Shown here piece by piece: positions 1 to 28,020 of a DNA stretch of 64,000 nt. The DNA lies in the NCBI RefSeq assembly GCF_003334255.1, contig NZ_QOWU01000020.1, one strand, 5' to 3'. The DNA is from Escherichia coli (GTDB lineage Bacteria > Pseudomonadota > Gammaproteobacteria > Enterobacterales > Enterobacteriaceae). The translations under genes were made by a program, and so were the position numbers. How positions within the stretch are numbered: the first letter of the stretch is position 1; every line of letters begins with the position of its first letter. The notes beneath the pieces are model-generated. The model searched no databases and had not been told where the DNA came from. It saw only the letters and a list, made by a program, of their open reading frames with translations.

Positions 1-76
1 ACGCGAGGCATCGTCTTAACGAGGCACCGAGGCGTCGCATTCTTCAGATGGTTCAACCCTTAAGTTAGCGCTTATG
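1..76. mobile_element. Terminal segment of an IS186-like (IS4 family) insertion sequence; the element continues to the left of the window
   Basis: Bases 54-76 (CAACCCTTAAGTTAGCGCTTATG) match my recollection of the 23-bp IS186 terminal inverted repeat (not database-checked). Bases 1-75 are unrelated to the expected alkB 3' end and yojI start. Flank at 77-89 (GGATGAAACCCC) resembles the G-run/N6/C-run IS186 hotspot. A + strand ORF runs in from the left edge and stops at 63-65. Confidence 0.55.
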
Positions 77-669
77 GGATGAAACCCCGCTTTCAACGGT
101 TGAATACCGTGATAAAACAGCCGCGATTCACCGCCCCATACCACCACATCGCCATGTTCCAACAACAAACGTTTGAGCGGATCATTTCGTTTCAGGCCGC
201 CAAATTGAAAAATCGCGGGTAAGCCCAGAGAAACAGAAACAATTGGCGCGCGCAGATCCGGTTCGTCTTTATCCTGATGCAGCGACAGTTTCGCGCCAGG
301 AGCGTAGCGGTTGATAAGACAAGCATCTGGCTGGAAATCTGGATAGCCCGCCGCCGTAGCCGCACGTTGACATAAATTATGAAAACTCTGTGGCATGGCG
401 GGCCACGGTTTATTTGTTTGCGGATCAATGGGCGAATAGAGATAACCTTGCCGATGGGTCGTCCAGCCCAGATGCCCACAGTTGGTCATCGCCACCGACA
501 TGGTATATCCCCCGGGGGTGACCATCTGGCGAAACGGCGACTGGCTGGCAACGTCATTAATATCGCGGATCAGTTGCTCCGCAGCGTTAAAAGCAAAACG
601 CCGTAAAATTACCGCACCAGCCGCCAGTGGCTCTTGCCACGGTTCAGCATCGGCAAACAGATCCAACAT
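16..669 (-). CDS. alkB: AlkB alkylated-DNA dioxygenase, variant allele: residues 1-198 are native, the last 19 aa are read from the foreign sequence at 16-75 (probably inactive)
   Basis: 217-aa ORF identical in register to K-12 AlkB through H197-P198 (N120, Y122, H131, D133, H187 present). After P198 the native tail LTIDCRYNLTFRQAGKKE is replaced by ISANLRVEPSEECDASVPR, so R204, N206 and R210 are missing. Confidence 0.85.
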   Translation of the reverse strand: MLDLFADAEPWQEPLAAGAVILRRFAFNAAEQLIRDINDVASQSPFRQMVTPGGYTMSVAMTNCGHLGWTTHRQGYLYSPIDPQTNKPWPAMPQSFHNLCQRAATAAGYPDFQPDACLINRYAPGAKLSLHQDKDEPDLRAPIVSVSLGLPAIFQFGGLKRNDPLKRLLLEHGDVVVWGGESRLFYHGIQPLKAGFHPISANLRVEPSEECDASVPR

Positions 670-1733
670 TACCTCTCCTCATTTTCAGCTTCGCGGCGCA
701 GCAGTTGCGCTTTACGCGACACGCCCCAGCGGTAACCGGAAAGTGTGCCATCACCACGGACCACCCGATGACAGGGTATTATGATAGCCAGCTTGTTGGC
801 GGCACAGGCGCTGGCAACGGCCCGTACCGCTTTCGGTTTGCCGATGGCGTTAGCCAGTTGCTGATAACTGACGGTTTCACCGCAAGGTATCGTGCGCAGT
901 GCCTGCCAGACTTGTTGCTGAAAAGCAGTGCCGCGAATGTCCAGCGGTAACGTCAGCGGCGTATCGCGTTGATTGAGGCTGGCGATCACTTCACGCACAT
1001 GTTGCTGAAACATCAGATCGGCAGGCGCGTTGTCGGCAGCGGGAAACATCTGCTGCAACTCGCTGATTAGTGTCGCGTCATCATCGCCCAGCAATATCGC
1101 GCAAATCCCCCGCTCGCTTTCTGCCACCAGGCAACGACCCAGCTCACAATCAGCCAGCGCGTAACGCACCGCCAGATTTTCGCCACCGTGACGGAATTGT
1201 TTAGCCGTCATGCCCAGCGTTTCGTCAGCTTTGCGATAGTAACTGCTGCTGTCGGGGAATCCGGCGTTAAGAATAGACGTCGTCACGCTCTCCCCTTTCG
1301 CCAGCGATTCGCGCAAACGGCGAGCGCGCCAGGCCTGTTGCCAGGCTTTAGGCGTCATTCCGGTAGTCGCTTTAAACAACCGATGTAGATGAAATGGACT
1401 CATCGCCACCTGGTCGGCTAAGGCTTCCAGCGTTACAGGCGTTTCCTGTTCCAGCAGTCGACACGCGTGGGTGATTTTATCCAACCGATGTTGCTGGGCA
1501 TTGGCTTTTTCTGGCTGACAACGTTTGCAGGGGCGAAAGCCAGCGGCGAGTGCCTCGCTGGCATTTGCGTAGAAGGAGACGTTTTCCCGCAAAGCATGTC
1601 TGGCGCGGCAAGACGGACGGCAAAAGATGCCTGTGGTACGCACGGCGAAAACGAATTCGCCGTCGGCATTCGGGTCGCGGGCTAAGACAGATTGCCAGCG
1701 TTGATCGTCAGTTAAGCATGTGGCTTTTTTCAT
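669..1733 (-). CDS. ada: Ada, O6-methylguanine-DNA methyltransferase and transcriptional regulator of the adaptive response
   Basis: 354-aa ORF matching Ada; its stop overlaps the alkB start (TAATG), the known ada-alkB operon arrangement. Confidence 0.95.
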   Translation of the reverse strand: MKKATCLTDDQRWQSVLARDPNADGEFVFAVRTTGIFCRPSCRARHALRENVSFYANASEALAAGFRPCKRCQPEKANAQQHRLDKITHACRLLEQETPVTLEALADQVAMSPFHLHRLFKATTGMTPKAWQQAWRARRLRESLAKGESVTTSILNAGFPDSSSYYRKADETLGMTAKQFRHGGENLAVRYALADCELGRCLVAESERGICAILLGDDDATLISELQQMFPAADNAPADLMFQQHVREVIASLNQRDTPLTLPLDIRGTAFQQQVWQALRTIPCGETVSYQQLANAIGKPKAVRAVASACAANKLAIIIPCHRVVRGDGTLSGYRWGVSRKAQLLRREAENEER

Positions 1734-1806: not shown

Positions 1807-2862
1807 TTAATTTTTTTCGCTGACAAGGAAGCTTTTAAACTGTGGTGACATCCAGGTTTTAAAGCTATCGCCTTCTTTGGTGATCATATAAACCGCCAGC
1901 CCTTCCCGGCGAACAACCTCTTTAGCTTTCTCCGGCCCGAGTACCATCAAGCCAGTATCCCAGGCATCGGCTTCCAGCGCCGTCGGAGCAATCACCGTCA
2001 CGGATACCAGATTGTGTTCGATGGGACGCCCGGTTTGCGGATCGATAACATGGGAAAGACGTTTGCCGTCCAGTTCGTAATAGTTACGGTAGCTGCCAGA
2101 GGTGCTAATCCCATGACCGTTGATATCCACCACAGCCTGAACCGCGTTTTCTTTATCGGTTGGTTTTTGAATCGCTACCCGCCACGGCAGGCCTTCACCG
2201 TTCATACCACGGCTGTTCAGCGCGCCGCCCACCGACACCAGATAGCGGGAAATCCCTTCCTGCTCCATCAAGCGTGCCAAATGATCGGCCGCATAGCCTT
2301 CGCCGACGGTGGAGAGATCGACATATAAATCCGGCAGGTCTTTTTGCAGATATTGCTGATGCGACTGATTGATGACCGTCAGGTGCTGTAAGCCGGTTTT
2401 GGCTTTCATCGCATCGATCTGTTCCTGGCTCGGAATTTGAACCGGCTGTTGTTCCGGGCCAAAGCCCCACAGATTCACCAGCGGCCCGACGGTTATATCC
2501 ATCGCGCCATCGGTCTTCGCGCCAATGCGCAGCGAGGTGGTGACGATATCGGCCATCGCTTCACTTACCGGCCACGGCGATAAACTTTGCGAGTCGTTAA
2601 AGCGCATCAGCGCGGAATCTTTTTTATAGGTCGAAAGCAGCTGATCGTCGGCGTCCAGTTGGGTCTGAATCTTTTCTTTAAGTTCGGCGCTGCGTTTGGC
2701 GTCAATGCCCGGGATGCTGGCACGCCAGAAGGTACCCATAGTTTTGCCTTCAAGAACGGTAACTTCAGTAGCGTGGGTTTTGGCGGGTTGTGGTTTTTGA
2801 TCGCAACCAACAAAGAAGAGCGCGGCAGCCAGCAGTGCCACGCGGGTAAAGCTTATTTCCAT
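1807..2862 (-). CDS. apbE: FAD:protein FMN transferase (ApbE)
   Basis: 351-aa ORF with lipoprotein-type signal peptide (LFFVGC); matches ApbE. Confidence 0.93.
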   Translation of the reverse strand: MEISFTRVALLAAALFFVGCDQKPQPAKTHATEVTVLEGKTMGTFWRASIPGIDAKRSAELKEKIQTQLDADDQLLSTYKKDSALMRFNDSQSLSPWPVSEAMADIVTTSLRIGAKTDGAMDITVGPLVNLWGFGPEQQPVQIPSQEQIDAMKAKTGLQHLTVINQSHQQYLQKDLPDLYVDLSTVGEGYAADHLARLMEQEGISRYLVSVGGALNSRGMNGEGLPWRVAIQKPTDKENAVQAVVDINGHGISTSGSYRNYYELDGKRLSHVIDPQTGRPIEHNLVSVTVIAPTALEADAWDTGLMVLGPEKAKEVVRREGLAVYMITKEGDSFKTWMSPQFKSFLVSEKN

Positions 2863-2973: not shown

Positions 2974-4411
<1,438 letters not shown>

Positions 4412-4504: not shown

Positions 4505-4815
4505 ACCCTTCTTTACACACTTTTCATTATTCTGTGCTACCACAGAAAAACTATAACGCTTGTTAACTATTTCACAAATAATTAACATCCGCATAATTTC
4601 CAGCAATCTTTGTTTATTTGCAATTATTTTTGTTGGGCTTTTTGTAGGTTATTTGTACAGCAAAATGGCGCTTGTACATCTATTTCCCCCAATGCAGGAT
4701 GATAAATATCACGGGAGAATAGAGAATCATCAATCAGGTAAGAGTCTGGAATTTCACACTGTACCCTTTATACTGCCCTATCACTTCGCGAAGTTTTAAC
4801 AGGTCATAAACACGA

Positions 4816-8359: not shown

Positions 8360-11204
8360 AATCCCGCGATTTCCTGACCCTCTCGGCATATAACGTCAGC
8401 GTCTGTTTTATCACATCCAGCGTTACCGGCTTCGACAGGCAGCTGTCCATACCGGACTCCAGACACCGCTGCTTCTCTTCAGCCAACGCATTAGCAGTTA
8501 CTCCGATTACCGGCAACGTCAGTCCCAACTGACGAATGCGTTGCGTCAAGCGGTAACCATCCATATTTGGCATGTTGACGTCGCTAAGCACGATATCAAT
8601 ATGATTCTTGCTAAGTACATTAAGCGCATCGACGCCATCATTCGCGGTTTTACATTGATAGCCCAACGATCCCAACTGATCTGCCAGCAAACGCCGGTTA
8701 ATCGGATGATCATCCACGACCAGAATCATCATATCGTCATTATCGCTGACCGCTTTGTCCGTTGACGGCAGAGCGTTAGCAGGATCGTCGCTCTCCATCT
8801 CGATCAAATAAATACGCGCCAACAATGCCGGTAGCTCATGCGGAGCAGCCACACTGTGTACCCACTCCCCTGGCGCTTTCTCCAGCGGAATACCAATATG
8901 GCGACGACAGAAGGTCACTACCGCTCTGCCCTGCCATTTTTTACTCACTACCTCGTCAGTGATCAACACATCTTCGGGAGTCGGTTCCTGCCCTTCGTAT
9001 GTTGTAACGACGATGCCGCTGCGCTGCAAACTGGTTTCCAGGAACTGACAGAGCGACGCATTGCGGACCGCCAGCCAGCAGCGTTTACCACTCAACCCTT
9101 CCACGCCTTTTTTCTGCGGGTACTGAGCGCCGTACAACGGAATACGCACGGTAAACTGGCTGCCCATTCCCGGTTCTGAATCTACCGAGATATCGCCGTC
9201 CATCATGCTGATCAGTTTTTCACAAATCGCCAGACCCAGACCGGTCCCCTGGAAATTACGCTGTACGCCCGTTCCGACCTGGAAGAAGGGATCAAACAAG
9301 CGCACCACTTCTTTCGCCGGTATCCCCACGCCGGTATCGCGAACACGGATAGAGAGATAATCGCCATCCGCGCGAACATGCAAAACTATACAGCCGGTAT
9401 CGGTGAATTTTATGGCGTTACTCAACAGGTTGGAGATGACCTGCTGTAAACGCATCGGGTCGCCATTTAAGGCCACTGGCACATCCGGTTCAATAAAGCA
9501 GTACAAGCCTAACTGCTTGCGTACCACCAGCGGTAAATAGTTGGCGGTGATGTGGTTCATCACTTCACGCGGTGAAAACTCACGCGGTTCGATCTTCAAC
9601 TGTTCCGATTCAATCTTCGAGAAATCGAGAATATCGCTGATAATTTTCAACAACAGGCTGGAAGAGTTGTTCATTGCCGTCACCAGCCGATCGACGCCTT
9701 TCGGTAACTCTTTGGTTTGCAACAGATCCAGGTTACCGATAATGCCATACAGCGGCGTTCGCAGCTCATGACTGACGGTGGCAAGGAACATCGATTTTGA
9801 CTGGCTCGCCTGTTCCGCTGCTTGTGCCATCTCCTGCAACGACTCTTCCATCTTCACGCGCGAAGAAACATCCACCAGCACACAAATGGCCACGTTTTCA
9901 TTACGATAGCGCGAATGGACGAAGCTGATTTGCAGATTGGTATTGTTGCTGGTCAGGACATCAACAAAATTGACCTGCTGCCCACAGATAATTTGCGTCA
10001 GTCGTTGGCGGTCCTCATGCGTAAGCATATTGAGATAGGTATGCGCCAGTTCGTTACTTAAAATATTGACGCCATCAGCGGTACGCAAAATGCAGATACC
10101 CACTGGCGCGGAGGCGACAATCTTGCGATTGAACTGCTCATGTTCTTCCAGTCGCAGGGCGTCGCTTTCCGCCGGAATGAAAATACGTCGCTCGTACATC
10201 CGTGCGAGAGTAAACAATGCAGCTCCGGCAAGCACATTCAGCAAAATTGCGTTAAGGATCAACATGCGAATGCGTTCCAGCACCTTATCAACCGGCACCG
10301 AATACACGATGCTTAGCGATGAGGGTGGCAGATTTTTCTTCAGCACCAGCTCCCGGAACCCTTCCGTATAGCCAAACCAGGAGCGTTCCTGCATCCAGCG
10401 AGGATCGCCCTTAATTTTACTTTCTGGTCCGGTAAGCGAAATCAGGGTATGACCATTTTCATCAAGAATGGTAACCCCCATCGGCAACGTACCCGGTAAG
10501 AAAAAGTTCTCCATCCGGATGGTCTGCTCGACACCCAAAAGCGCCTGCAACCGGTTCGCCAGATAAACTGGCGTCAACGCGTAAAAATACCCGACGCCAG
10601 GGCGCGGACCTTCGCTGATCCAGTAGAGGTTACTGCCGCTATCATCTTGTGGTGCATTTCGATATTTATTGATGCGTTCATGCAAAGCTTTCAACGCGGT
10701 ATCGCGTTCCACTGGCATATCACGCAGACCGAAATTGGCCATGCAGAGGTTATCGCTGCCGATTAAAAATACCCGGTTTAGATCGTAAGCCGCAGAAAAA
10801 TTATCGCGCCAGTAGCGCATAAACCACGCCAATGACTCCAGAGAACCTCGCCAGGTGTTACTCATTGCGGAACAATCGGAGTCGGCAAACAGCGGTTCAA
10901 ACGCAGGCACATCCGCCTGCGTTTCTCGTCCACGCGGGGAAAGCACACCGTTTTCTGCCGATAAGCGATTTTCGGCGATGTACTTCAGCTCTTTCATCAC
11001 ATCAGAGGTGCGTTGAATAAAGCGCTGAGCCTGATCGGAACTCAGATTAAATTCCTGACGAATTTCCGATTCTCGCTGATGTAACGCATTAACGATGTAA
11101 AAAACGGATGAAAAAGCAATCAACAGCCAGAGCACTAACGCCAATGCTCTGAACATGTAGCGCGAGGCTTTCAGGGTTGTACGAAAAGAAGCAAGGTATT
11201 TCAA
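8355..11204 (-). CDS. rcsC: RcsC hybrid sensor histidine kinase
   Basis: 949-aa ORF with HisKA/HATPase region and C-terminal receiver domain; matches RcsC. Confidence 0.95.
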
Positions 11205-13197: not shown

Positions 13198-14579
13198 CTG
13201 CTATTAATCGCATCCTTATTGTGGATGATGAAGATAATGTTCGCCGTATGCTGAGCACCGCTTTTGCACTACAAGGATTCGAAACACATTGTGCGAACAA
13301 CGGACGCACAGCATTACACCTGTTTGCCGATATTCACCCTGATGTGGTGTTGATGGATATCCGCATGCCAGAGATGGACGGCATCAAGGCACTAAAGGAG
13401 ATGCGCAGCCATGAGACCCGGACACCCGTTATTCTGATGACGGCCTATGCGGAAGTGGAAACCGCCGTCGAAGCGCTACGCTGCGGAGCCTTCGACTATG
13501 TTATTAAACCGTTTGATCTCGATGAGTTGAATTTAATCGTTCAGCGCGCTTTACAACTCCAGTCAATGAAAAAAGAGATCCGTCATCTGCACCAGGCACT
13601 GAGCACCAGCTGGCAATGGGGGCACATTCTCACCAACAGCCCGGCGATGATGGACATCTGCAAAGACACCGCCAAAATTGCCCTTTCTCAGGCCAGCGTC
13701 TTGATTAGCGGTGAAAGCGGCACCGGGAAAGAGTTGATTGCCAGAGCGATTCACTACAATTCGCGGCGGGCAAAGGGGCCGTTCATTAAAGTCAACTGCG
13801 CGGCGCTGCCGGAATCGTTGCTCGAAAGTGAACTGTTTGGTCATGAAAAAGGTGCATTTACTGGTGCACAAACCTTGCGTCAGGGATTATTTGAACGAGC
13901 CAACGAAGGTACTCTGCTCCTCGACGAAATTGGCGAAATGCCGCTGGTACTACAAGCCAAATTACTACGCATTCTACAGGAACGGGAATTTGAACGGATT
14001 GGCGGCCATCAGACCATAAAAGTTGATATCCGCATCATTGCTGCCACCAACCGCGACTTGCAGGCAATGGTAAAAGAAGGCACCTTCCGTGAAGATCTCT
14101 TTTATCGCCTTAACGTTATTCATTTAATACTGCCGCCTCTGCGTGATCGCCTGGAAGATATTTCCCTGTTAGCTAATCACTTTTTGCAAAAATTCAGTAG
14201 TGAGAATCAGCGCGATATTATCGACATCGATCCGATGGCAATGTCACTGCTTACCGCCTGGTCATGGCCGGGAAATATTCGAGAGCTTTCCAACGTTATT
14301 GAACGCGCCGTCGTGATGAATTCAGGCCCGATCATTTTTTCTGAGGATCTTCCGCCACAGATTCGTCAGCCAGTCTGTAATGCTGGCGAGGTAAAAACAG
14401 CCCCTGTCGGTGAGCGTAATTTAAAAGAGGAAATTAAACGCGTCGAAAAACGCATCATTATGGAAGTGCTGGAACAACAAGAAGGAAACCGAACCCGCAC
14501 TGCTTTAATGCTGGGCATCAGTCGCCGTGCATTGATGTATAAACTCCAGGAATACGGTATCGATCCGGCGGATGTATAA
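13194..14579 (+). CDS. atoC: AtoC sigma54-dependent response regulator (NtrC family)
   Basis: 461-aa ORF with receiver domain, AAA+ motifs (GESGTGKE, GAFTGA) and C-terminal HTH; overlaps atoS stop by 4 nt. Confidence 0.95.
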   Translation: MTAINRILIVDDEDNVRRMLSTAFALQGFETHCANNGRTALHLFADIHPDVVLMDIRMPEMDGIKALKEMRSHETRTPVILMTAYAEVETAVEALRCGAFDYVIKPFDLDELNLIVQRALQLQSMKKEIRHLHQALSTSWQWGHILTNSPAMMDICKDTAKIALSQASVLISGESGTGKELIARAIHYNSRRAKGPFIKVNCAALPESLLESELFGHEKGAFTGAQTLRQGLFERANEGTLLLDEIGEMPLVLQAKLLRILQEREFERIGGHQTIKVDIRIIAATNRDLQAMVKEGTFREDLFYRLNVIHLILPPLRDRLEDISLLANHFLQKFSSENQRDIIDIDPMAMSLLTAWSWPGNIRELSNVIERAVVMNSGPIIFSEDLPPQIRQPVCNAGEVKTAPVGERNLKEEIKRVEKRIIMEVLEQQEGNRTRTALMLGISRRALMYKLQEYGIDPADV

Positions 14580-17436: not shown

Positions 17437-18621
17437 ATGAAAAATTGTGTCATCGTCAGTGCGGTACGTACTGCTATCGGTAGTTTTAACGGTTCACTCG
17501 CTTCCACCAGCGCCATCGACCTGGGGGCGACAGTAATTAAAGCCGCCATTGAACGTGCAAAAATCGATTCACAACACGTTGATGAAGTGATTATGGGTAA
17601 CGTGTTACAAGCCGGGCTGGGGCAAAATCCGGCGCGTCAGGCACTGTTAAAAAGCGGGCTGGCAGAAACGGTGTGCGGATTCACGGTCAATAAAGTATGT
17701 GGTTCGGGTCTTAAAAGTGTGGCGCTTGCCGCCCAGGCCATTCAGGCAGGTCAGGCGCAGAGCATTGTGGCGGGGGGTATGGAAAATATGAGTTTAGCCC
17801 CCTACTTACTCGATGCAAAAGCACGCTCTGGTTATCGTCTTGGAGACGGACAGGTTTATGACGTAATCCTGCGCGATGGCCTGATGTGCGCCACCCATGG
17901 TTATCATATGGGGATTACCGCCGAAAACGTGGCTAAAGAGTACGGAATTACCCGTGAAATGCAGGATGAACTGGCGCTACATTCACAGCGTAAAGCGGCA
18001 GCCGCAATTGAGTCCGGTGCTTTTACAGCCGAAATCGTCCCGGTAAATGTTGTCACTCGAAAGAAAACCTTCGTCTTCAGTCAAGACGAATTCCCGAAAG
18101 CGAATTCAACGGCTGAAGCGTTAGGTGCATTGCGCCCGGCCTTCGATAAAGCAGGAACAGTCACCGCTGGGAACGCGTCTGGTATTAACGACGGTGCTGC
18201 CGCTCTGGTGATTATGGAAGAATCTGCGGCGCTGGCAGCAGGCCTTACCCCCCTGGCTCGCATTAAAAGTTATGCCAGCGGTGGCGTGCCCCCCGCATTG
18301 ATGGGTATGGGGCCAGTACCTGCCACGCAAAAAGCGTTACAACTGGCGGGGCTGCAACTGGCGGATATTGATCTCATTGAGGCTAATGAAGCATTTGCTG
18401 CACAGTTCCTTGCCGTTGGGAAAAACCTGGGCTTTGATTCTGAGAAAGTGAATGTCAACGGCGGGGCCATCGCGCTCGGGCATCCTATCGGTGCCAGTGG
18501 TGCTCGTATTCTGGTCACACTATTACATGCCATGCAGGCACGCGATAAAACGCTGGGGCTGGCAACACTGTGCATTGGCGGCGGTCAGGGAATTGCGATG
18601 GTGATTGAACGGTTGAATTAA
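17437..18621 (+). CDS. atoB: Acetyl-CoA acetyltransferase (thiolase II)
   Basis: 394-aa ORF with thiolase motifs ([17 protein letters not shown]-terminal CIGGGQG). Confidence 0.95.

Positions 18622-21125: not shown

Positions 21126-28020
<6,895 letters not shown>

Follow-up and report, generated by a model that had tools for sequence, protein, structure and literature searches.

At its left edge, the 64,000-nucleotide stretch of Escherichia coli DNA analyzed here (the window) carries 76 nucleotides that are foreign to the alkB gene and lie directly against it, and this raises the questions of what these nucleotides are, how they came to adjoin alkB, and what has become of the gene. A preliminary description, made from the letters alone, had taken them for the end of an IS186-like element inserted into alkB in a strain-specific event. 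When we compared positions 1–76 with 5426 complete E. coli genomes, we found the same sequence (100% identity, E = 3e-31) at 8422 places, distributed over 2144 genomes, and positions 1–76 proved to be identical to the last 76 nt of IS186A of MG1655 and of 12 copies of IS186 that are inserted in alkB. The last 23 of these nucleotides, CAACCCTTAAGTTAGCGCTTATG, which the preliminary description had matched to the IS186 terminal inverted repeat, are the exact reverse complement of the left terminal repeat of the element, CATAAGCGCTAACTTAAGGGTTG. At up to three mismatches, CATAAGCGCTAACTTAAGGGTTG has a single match in the 64-kb window, on the minus strand at this position, and 100 shuffles gave none. 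The genomic copies of the 76 nt sit just downstream of genes that PGAP names "IS4-like element IS421 family transposase," and in the annotation of NC_000913.3 the element is the insertion sequence IS186A, whose insL1 is an "IS186/IS421 family transposase." We conclude that positions 1–76 are the right end of IS186, a member of the IS4 family, and on this point the preliminary description was correct.

The part of the element that is visible in the window amounts to 76 of 1339 nt, and the remainder lies to the left of base 1. We took the length of IS186 from repeat to repeat (1339 bp) instead of using the 1345-bp RefSeq feature. That feature (IS186A, NC_000913.3 15387–16731; retrieved segment L024 388–1732) is 1345 bp long, with 3 bp of duplicated target (TCC / GGA) on each side. 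The features discussed here are collected in the table.

Table. Positions and strands of the features at the alkB::IS186 junction, in the rest of the window, and in the rearranged genome VG48B2. Positions are those of the window unless a retrieved segment is named.
Feature	Position	Strand	Remarks
IS186 right end, last 76 nt	1–76	+	100% identity; 3' noncoding region downstream of insL, plus right inverted repeat
IS186 right terminal inverted repeat, 23 bp, CAACCCTTAAGTTAGCGCTTATG	54–76	+	Exact reverse complement of CATAAGCGCTAACTTAAGGGTTG
Tail of small IS186 open frame (46 aa in full copies)	1–68	+	Frame 3, stop TAG 66–68
Chimeric alkB ORF, 217 aa	16–669	-	Residues 1–198 from 77–669; 19-aa tail ISANLRVEPSEECDASVPR and stop from IS end 16–76
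Target-site duplication, right-hand copy, 10 bp, GGATGAAACC	77–86	+	Both copies in full elements of relatives; once in MG1655
Retained part of target, GG ATGAAA CCCC	77–88	+	From GTGG-ATGAAA-CCCC, unbroken site in MG1655
ada, upstream gene of ada-alkB operon, intact	669–1733	-	Product of 354 aa; VG48B2 and MG1655 are annotated with the identical WP_000710375.1
apbE	1807–2862	-	Chromosomal neighbor
ompC	2974–4077	-	Chromosomal neighbor
rcsB, codon 207	8125		Differs from both MG1655 and VG48B2
atoC, R320L	14152		Differs from both MG1655 and VG48B2
atoE	16376		Differs from both MG1655 and VG48B2
atoB IS186 site	18278–18300		Empty in window
yfaS	21126–25640	-	Intact
yfaL	33516		Differs from both MG1655 and VG48B2
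yfaU	49494		Differs from both MG1655 and VG48B2
VG48B2 hybrid IS186 copy	L001 1738–3076		NZ_CP128584.1
VG48B2 hybrid IS186 copy	L038 15635–16973		NZ_CP128584.1

Two plus-strand reading frames are open from the left edge of the window: frame 1, which ends at a TAA stop codon at 61–63, and frame 3, which ends at the TAG given in the table. It had been proposed that a frame entering from the left and stopping at 63–65 is the coding tail of the element; no frame stops there, and neither of the two real frames belongs to the transposase. In identical copies of the element, insL ends 95–97 nt to the left of the position that corresponds to base 1 of the window, and we therefore rejected the open frames in 1–68 as the transposase C terminus; with the insL stop codon about 95 nt before the window, neither frame is supported. 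A Pfam search with the 46-aa product of the full-length frame 3 ORF gave no match, and this ORF was called by one gene caller in two assemblies.

On the chromosomal side, the minus-strand gene alkB starts at base 77, directly adjoining the IS186 end, which is joined there to GGATGAAACCCC. The K-12 genomes that we compared (MG1655, C600, J53, HB101, and ER1709) match the window from base 77 only. In MG1655, the site is unbroken and reads ...GGTGAGTGGATGAAACCCCGC... / ...GGTGAGTGGATGAAACCCCGCTTTC..., without an insertion sequence. The preliminary description had held that the K-12 reference is not known to carry IS186 at this locus, and it had named a K-12 genome reading identically through positions 1–90 as the observation that would speak against an insertion; the K-12 matches begin at 77, and these genomes run straight through the site.

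The junction falls inside codon 198 of alkB (CC/C, the slash marking the junction), which still encodes Pro, and the reading frame continues into the element. The wild-type C terminus of AlkB, LTIDCRYNLTFRQAGKKE (residues 199–216), is replaced by ISANLRVEPSEECDASVPR. A BLASTP comparison showed identity to K-12 AlkB through residue 198, in agreement with the earlier statement that the IS186 terminus abuts alkB and displaces codons 199–216. Pfam PF13532 (2OG-FeII_Oxy_2) aligns with the chimera over model positions 1–181 of 194 and with K-12 AlkB over positions 1–194; the chimera lacks a complete domain, its last 13 positions being lost. Residues 1–198 are identical to the crystallized AlkB, and the iron ligands His131, Asp133, and His187 are kept. 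Among the residues described in AlkB are these ligands and Arg204, which binds the C5 carboxylate of 2OG (PMC7467159), and Arg210, which is specific to the family (PMC8508711). The conserved C-terminal arginine is absent from the chimera, in which position 210 is Glu, and Asn206 is also replaced by Glu. An Arg recurs at position 204 of the chimera by coincidence, within ISANLR, a peptide that the terminal repeat encodes in either orientation, and the alignment of the chimera with solved AlkB structures stops at residue 204. As the last 13 positions of PF13532 and Arg210 are lost, the chimeric AlkB is probably inactive, to judge from its sequence.

This allele is easily missed in annotation. 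The chimera in the window is the same protein as WP_021557963.1 of the complete genome VG48B2 (NZ_CP128584.1), which PGAP names "DNA oxidative demethylase AlkB" and does not mark as a pseudogene; the allele is very likely defective although it is labeled as plain AlkB. In VG48B2 and ten other RefSeq genomes, chimeras of 217 aa and 211 aa are labeled as normal AlkB and carry WP accessions. The PGAP partial flag is attached only to a 69-nt fragment of the alkB tail and, in SCU-104, also to the head of the gene.

The target consensus of IS186 reportedly goes back to a primary paper by SaiSree et al. in 2001. The element inserts at 5'-GGGG(N6/N7)CCCC-3', a highly specific target that is palindromic, so that both orientations are used (Lee et al., 2016, PMC5009759; quoted in PMC6925257), and one or two mismatches to it were reported at 7 of 59 IS186 sites (Lee et al., 2016, PMC5009759). 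The alkB target, GTGG ATGAAA CCCC, agrees with this preferred, though not obligatory, motif, in the form GGGG(N6)CCCC, at seven of the eight flank positions and has an N6 core. The site had been likened to the hotspot with a G-run, N6, and a C-run, and this description fits the core and seven flank positions but not the G-run itself, which is GTGG and not GGGG. The first two bases of GTGG lie across the insertion sequence from the window, and hence the window keeps GG ATGAAA CCCC. As 13 sites in the 64-kb window match the N6 motif with one mismatch, the motif match is weak on its own; it is consistent with an insertion, and it does not explain why the site recurs. At the other IS186 targets that we compared, which are those of IS186A (GGGG ATCACT CCCC), of yehM in VG48B2 (GGGG CGATTT CCCC), and of atoB in the genomes N25 and LR-29-1 (GTGG CGTGCC CCCC), each 10-bp duplication is made up of the core with two flank bases on either side.

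The copies of IS186 in atoB of N25 and LR-29-1 (retrieved segments L010 23553–24891 and L011 22217–23555) have the duplication GGCGTGCCCC and the same GTGG variant as alkB; the corresponding site is empty in the window. In a 25-kb search, these two genomes appeared to cover positions 1–25000 at 100%. We rejected this as an artifact of joined pieces, as both have an intact alkB and owe the 76-nt match to the IS186 in atoB, 18 kb away.

The minus strand from base 77 carries alkB, then ada, apbE, and ompC, and the window differs from MG1655 by 15 SNPs in 63.9 kb. The alpha-2-macroglobulin gene yfaS has TGG (Trp1338) at 21627, where MG1655, in which yfaS is listed as a pseudogene, has TGA. The intact yfaS identifies the host as a K-12-like natural isolate and not as K-12. 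The sequence from base 77 had been described as K-12 alkB and beyond, which is right for alkB and the neighbors that follow it, whereas the host, with its 15 SNPs and intact yfaS, is K-12-like. Nine sites in the window differ from both MG1655 and VG48B2 (those in rcsB, atoC, atoE, yfaL, and yfaU are listed in the table), and the synonymous change in rcsB is absent from all nine contigs that we compared and that carry the same alkB chimera.

We searched the 5426 complete genomes with a 300-nt query that spans the junction and found the junction in 11 of them. Six have the element in the orientation seen in the window (VG48B2, PCN061, MLI023K1, MLI023K2, PRO_A-1412-6M-A, and LT883142), and five have it in the opposite orientation (SCU-104, PSS-08-2, MB06233, ETEC1749, and PCP06021), the match in the latter extending only from the shared repeat (base 54). 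For closer analysis we used 12 assemblies, namely ten of the 11 complete genomes (all except MLI023K2, a sister isolate of MLI023K1) and two long draft scaffolds, GCA_964050635 and GCA_000460275, which were found through the exact chimeric protein. In all 12, the IS186 at the alkB site measures 1338–1340 bp from repeat to repeat, second inverted repeat included, and the transposase of the copies at this site is a 370-aa protein with Pfam PF01609 (DDE_Tnp_1). Eight of the full copies show no substitution relative to IS186A, one of them having a 1-nt insertion, and each of the other four has a single substitution or a 1-nt deletion. In 11 of the 12 assemblies, the left flank ends in ...GAGTGGATGAAACC and the right flank begins with GGATGAAACCCCGC, which makes a 10-bp direct duplication of GGATGAAACC, a sequence that is single in MG1655; in the same 11, the far side of IS186 carries the alkB tail that was displaced, a 69-nt AlkB fragment in the annotation, and then yojI. 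The second inverted repeat, the duplication, the alkB tail, and yojI, which the preliminary description had said should be looked for, were thus found in relatives with the identical junction, except that the left flank differs in VG48B2; the window itself begins inside the element, 76 nt from its right end.

The flanks of these insertions are not all of one descent. Over 2.9 kb of alkB, ada, and apbE, we found six flank haplotypes, with as many as 51 differences from the window. One of them, the K-12-like one, is shared by VG48B2, GCA_964050635, GCA_000460275, and the window, with the element in one orientation, and by PSS-08-2 and SCU-104, with the element in the other, and the haplotype of PCN061 and ETEC1749 likewise carries IS186 in both orientations. 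From the six haplotypes and the two orientations, we deduce that IS186 entered this one position, to the base, at least seven times independently. Among public contigs, 42 carry exactly the 217-aa chimera seen in the window, and 99 carry the 211-aa chimera that the opposite orientation produces. The insertion is therefore not strain specific, as had been supposed, but polymorphic and recurrent, with at least seven independent hits and a presence in 11 of 5426 complete genomes.

VG48B2 is the one assembly with a different left flank. There, the 3' portion of yehM (DUF5682), and not the alkB tail, precedes the IS186 at alkB. The reciprocal junction lies 101.4 kb away, upstream, and has the order yehL, 5' part of yehM, IS186, GGTTTCATCC, alkB tail, yojI, and mqo. 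Each of the two hybrid IS186 copies is flanked by one copy of the yehM duplication, GGCGATTTCC, and one copy of the alkB duplication, GGATGAAACC. VG48B2 has thus undergone a homologous inversion of 101.4 kb between IS186 copies of inverse orientation, one in yehM and one in alkB, each of which was first a simple insertion, and the alkB copy has served as a substrate for chromosomal inversion in at least one strain. The atoC gene of VG48B2 (retrieved segment L008 13194–14578) is annotated as frameshifted, with a 1-nt deletion at about position 14335 of the window; atoC is intact in the window.

The reading that we favor, and consider very likely, is a simple insertion of a full IS186 into alkB that left a probably inactive chimera. 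IS186, which encodes a DDE transposase, transposed into codon 198 of alkB at the target GTGG-ATGAAA-CCCC. To judge from all the other full copies that we examined, the staggered cuts would lie 10 bp apart, with the 6-bp core that separates the G-rich from the C-rich flank at their center, and repair of the gaps would have duplicated GGATGAAACC, the right-hand copy of which would be the one at the junction. Most likely the element in this strain is complete, at 1339 bp, and the second copy of the duplication, alkB codons 199–216, and yojI should adjoin the window on its left; the left junction of a simple insertion would read ...GGTGAGTGGATGAAACC followed directly by CATAAGCGCTAACTTAAGGGTTG.

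The strongest competing account accepts the transposition junction as genuine but holds that the IS186 has since recombined with another copy, by inversion or deletion, so that the left flank would be something other than the alkB tail and yojI. Recombination between IS186 copies is documented (PMC6925257, PMC5009759), and it took place in VG48B2, a genome with the identical junction and 99.97% identity to the window over 64 kb. Against this, 11 of 12 (or 12 of 13) long assemblies with the junction have simple insertions, and GCA_964050635 has a simple insertion even though it shares the VG48B2 SNPs at 4662 and 9095, both of which the window lacks. As GCA_964050635 is not inverted despite these common SNPs, the VG48B2 inversion must be younger than the SNPs, and as the window lacks them, that inversion is unlikely to apply to it. 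We regard a rearranged left flank in the window as unlikely.

Two further accounts concern the origin of the 76 bases. In one, the 76 bases are an assembly artifact, a repeat misattached at a contig end or a chimeric join, and there is no insertion sequence at alkB. The draft contigs that have the junction do stop 74–153 nt inside the element, a typical break at a repeat, and the 76 nt of the window fit this pattern, so that base 1 of the window may be the end of a contig. However, the junction falls precisely where 11 complete genomes carry IS186 with the 10-bp duplication, on a flank haplotype identical to that of the window, and alkB codons 199–216 are absent from the window rather than merely extended by additional sequence; we consider an artifact very improbable. 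In the other, the 76 bases come from an engineered cassette or from another member of the IS4 family whose tip alone resembles IS186. This is hardly credible, as K-12 IS186A and thousands of natural copies share all 76 nt, well beyond the repeat, without a difference, and the background is that of a natural K-12-like isolate with an intact yfaS. 

The short-read contigs that stop 74–153 nt inside IS186 include BGGL01000080.1, CATTYF010000011.1, and NOEM01000002.1, as well as others (L032–L037). The end of IS186 accounts for the start of the window and probably for the start of its contig too, and the pattern of these breaks suggests that the repeated sequence of IS186 broke the contig where the window begins.

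The repeated use of one position also bears on whether the site is special. If the motif alone decided, about 900 sites per genome with one mismatch would qualify just as well, and the reuse of codon 198 could accordingly be taken to reflect a recurrent hot spot beyond the motif, together with selection in the wild for loss or alteration of AlkB or for altered yojI expression, or with a chimera that is partly active. Partial activity could be proposed because the terminal repeat, read in either orientation, regenerates Arg204. We think it improbable that the site is such a hot spot. In the searchable open literature, we found no paper that names both "IS186" and "alkB," and the recurrent use of the alkB site, with its GTGG variant of the motif, may be a previously unreported natural hot spot and, as such, a small addition.

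Taken together, these results support the view that the finding is real, that its interpretation is right in the essentials, and that it is of an ordinary kind. IS186, its target preference, and inversions mediated by insertion sequences are well known, and the same alkB allele is already present in public genomes. The value of the finding lies mainly in annotation and strain typing, where alkB::IS186 can mark the lineage of a group of natural, K-12-like isolates; what is known of IS186 or of AlkB is unchanged.

The alkB insertion can be placed among known copies of IS186. The public alkB::IS186 alleles (VG48B2, PCN061, MLI023K1 and MLI023K2, and LT883142, and in the opposite orientation SCU-104, PSS-08-2, and ETEC1749) have a junction identical to the base and the same duplication, and VG48B2 differs from the window by 18 substitutions and one indel over 64 kb. 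None of the 11 complete genomes that have the junction is identical to the window. In K-12 MG1655, none of the IS186A, IS186B, and IS186C copies is in alkB; the duplication of IS186A at its K-12 site, GGATCACTCC, is 10 bp long, as at alkB. The alkB site resembles the known IS186 hot spots in that one exact position is hit repeatedly, in both orientations, with a 6-bp core set between a G-rich and a C-rich flank. It differs from them in its G-run: the hot-spot sites in the lon promoter of E. coli B and in fimA and menC in mutation-accumulation lines have GGGG (Lee et al., 2016, PMC5009759), whereas the alkB site has GTGG.
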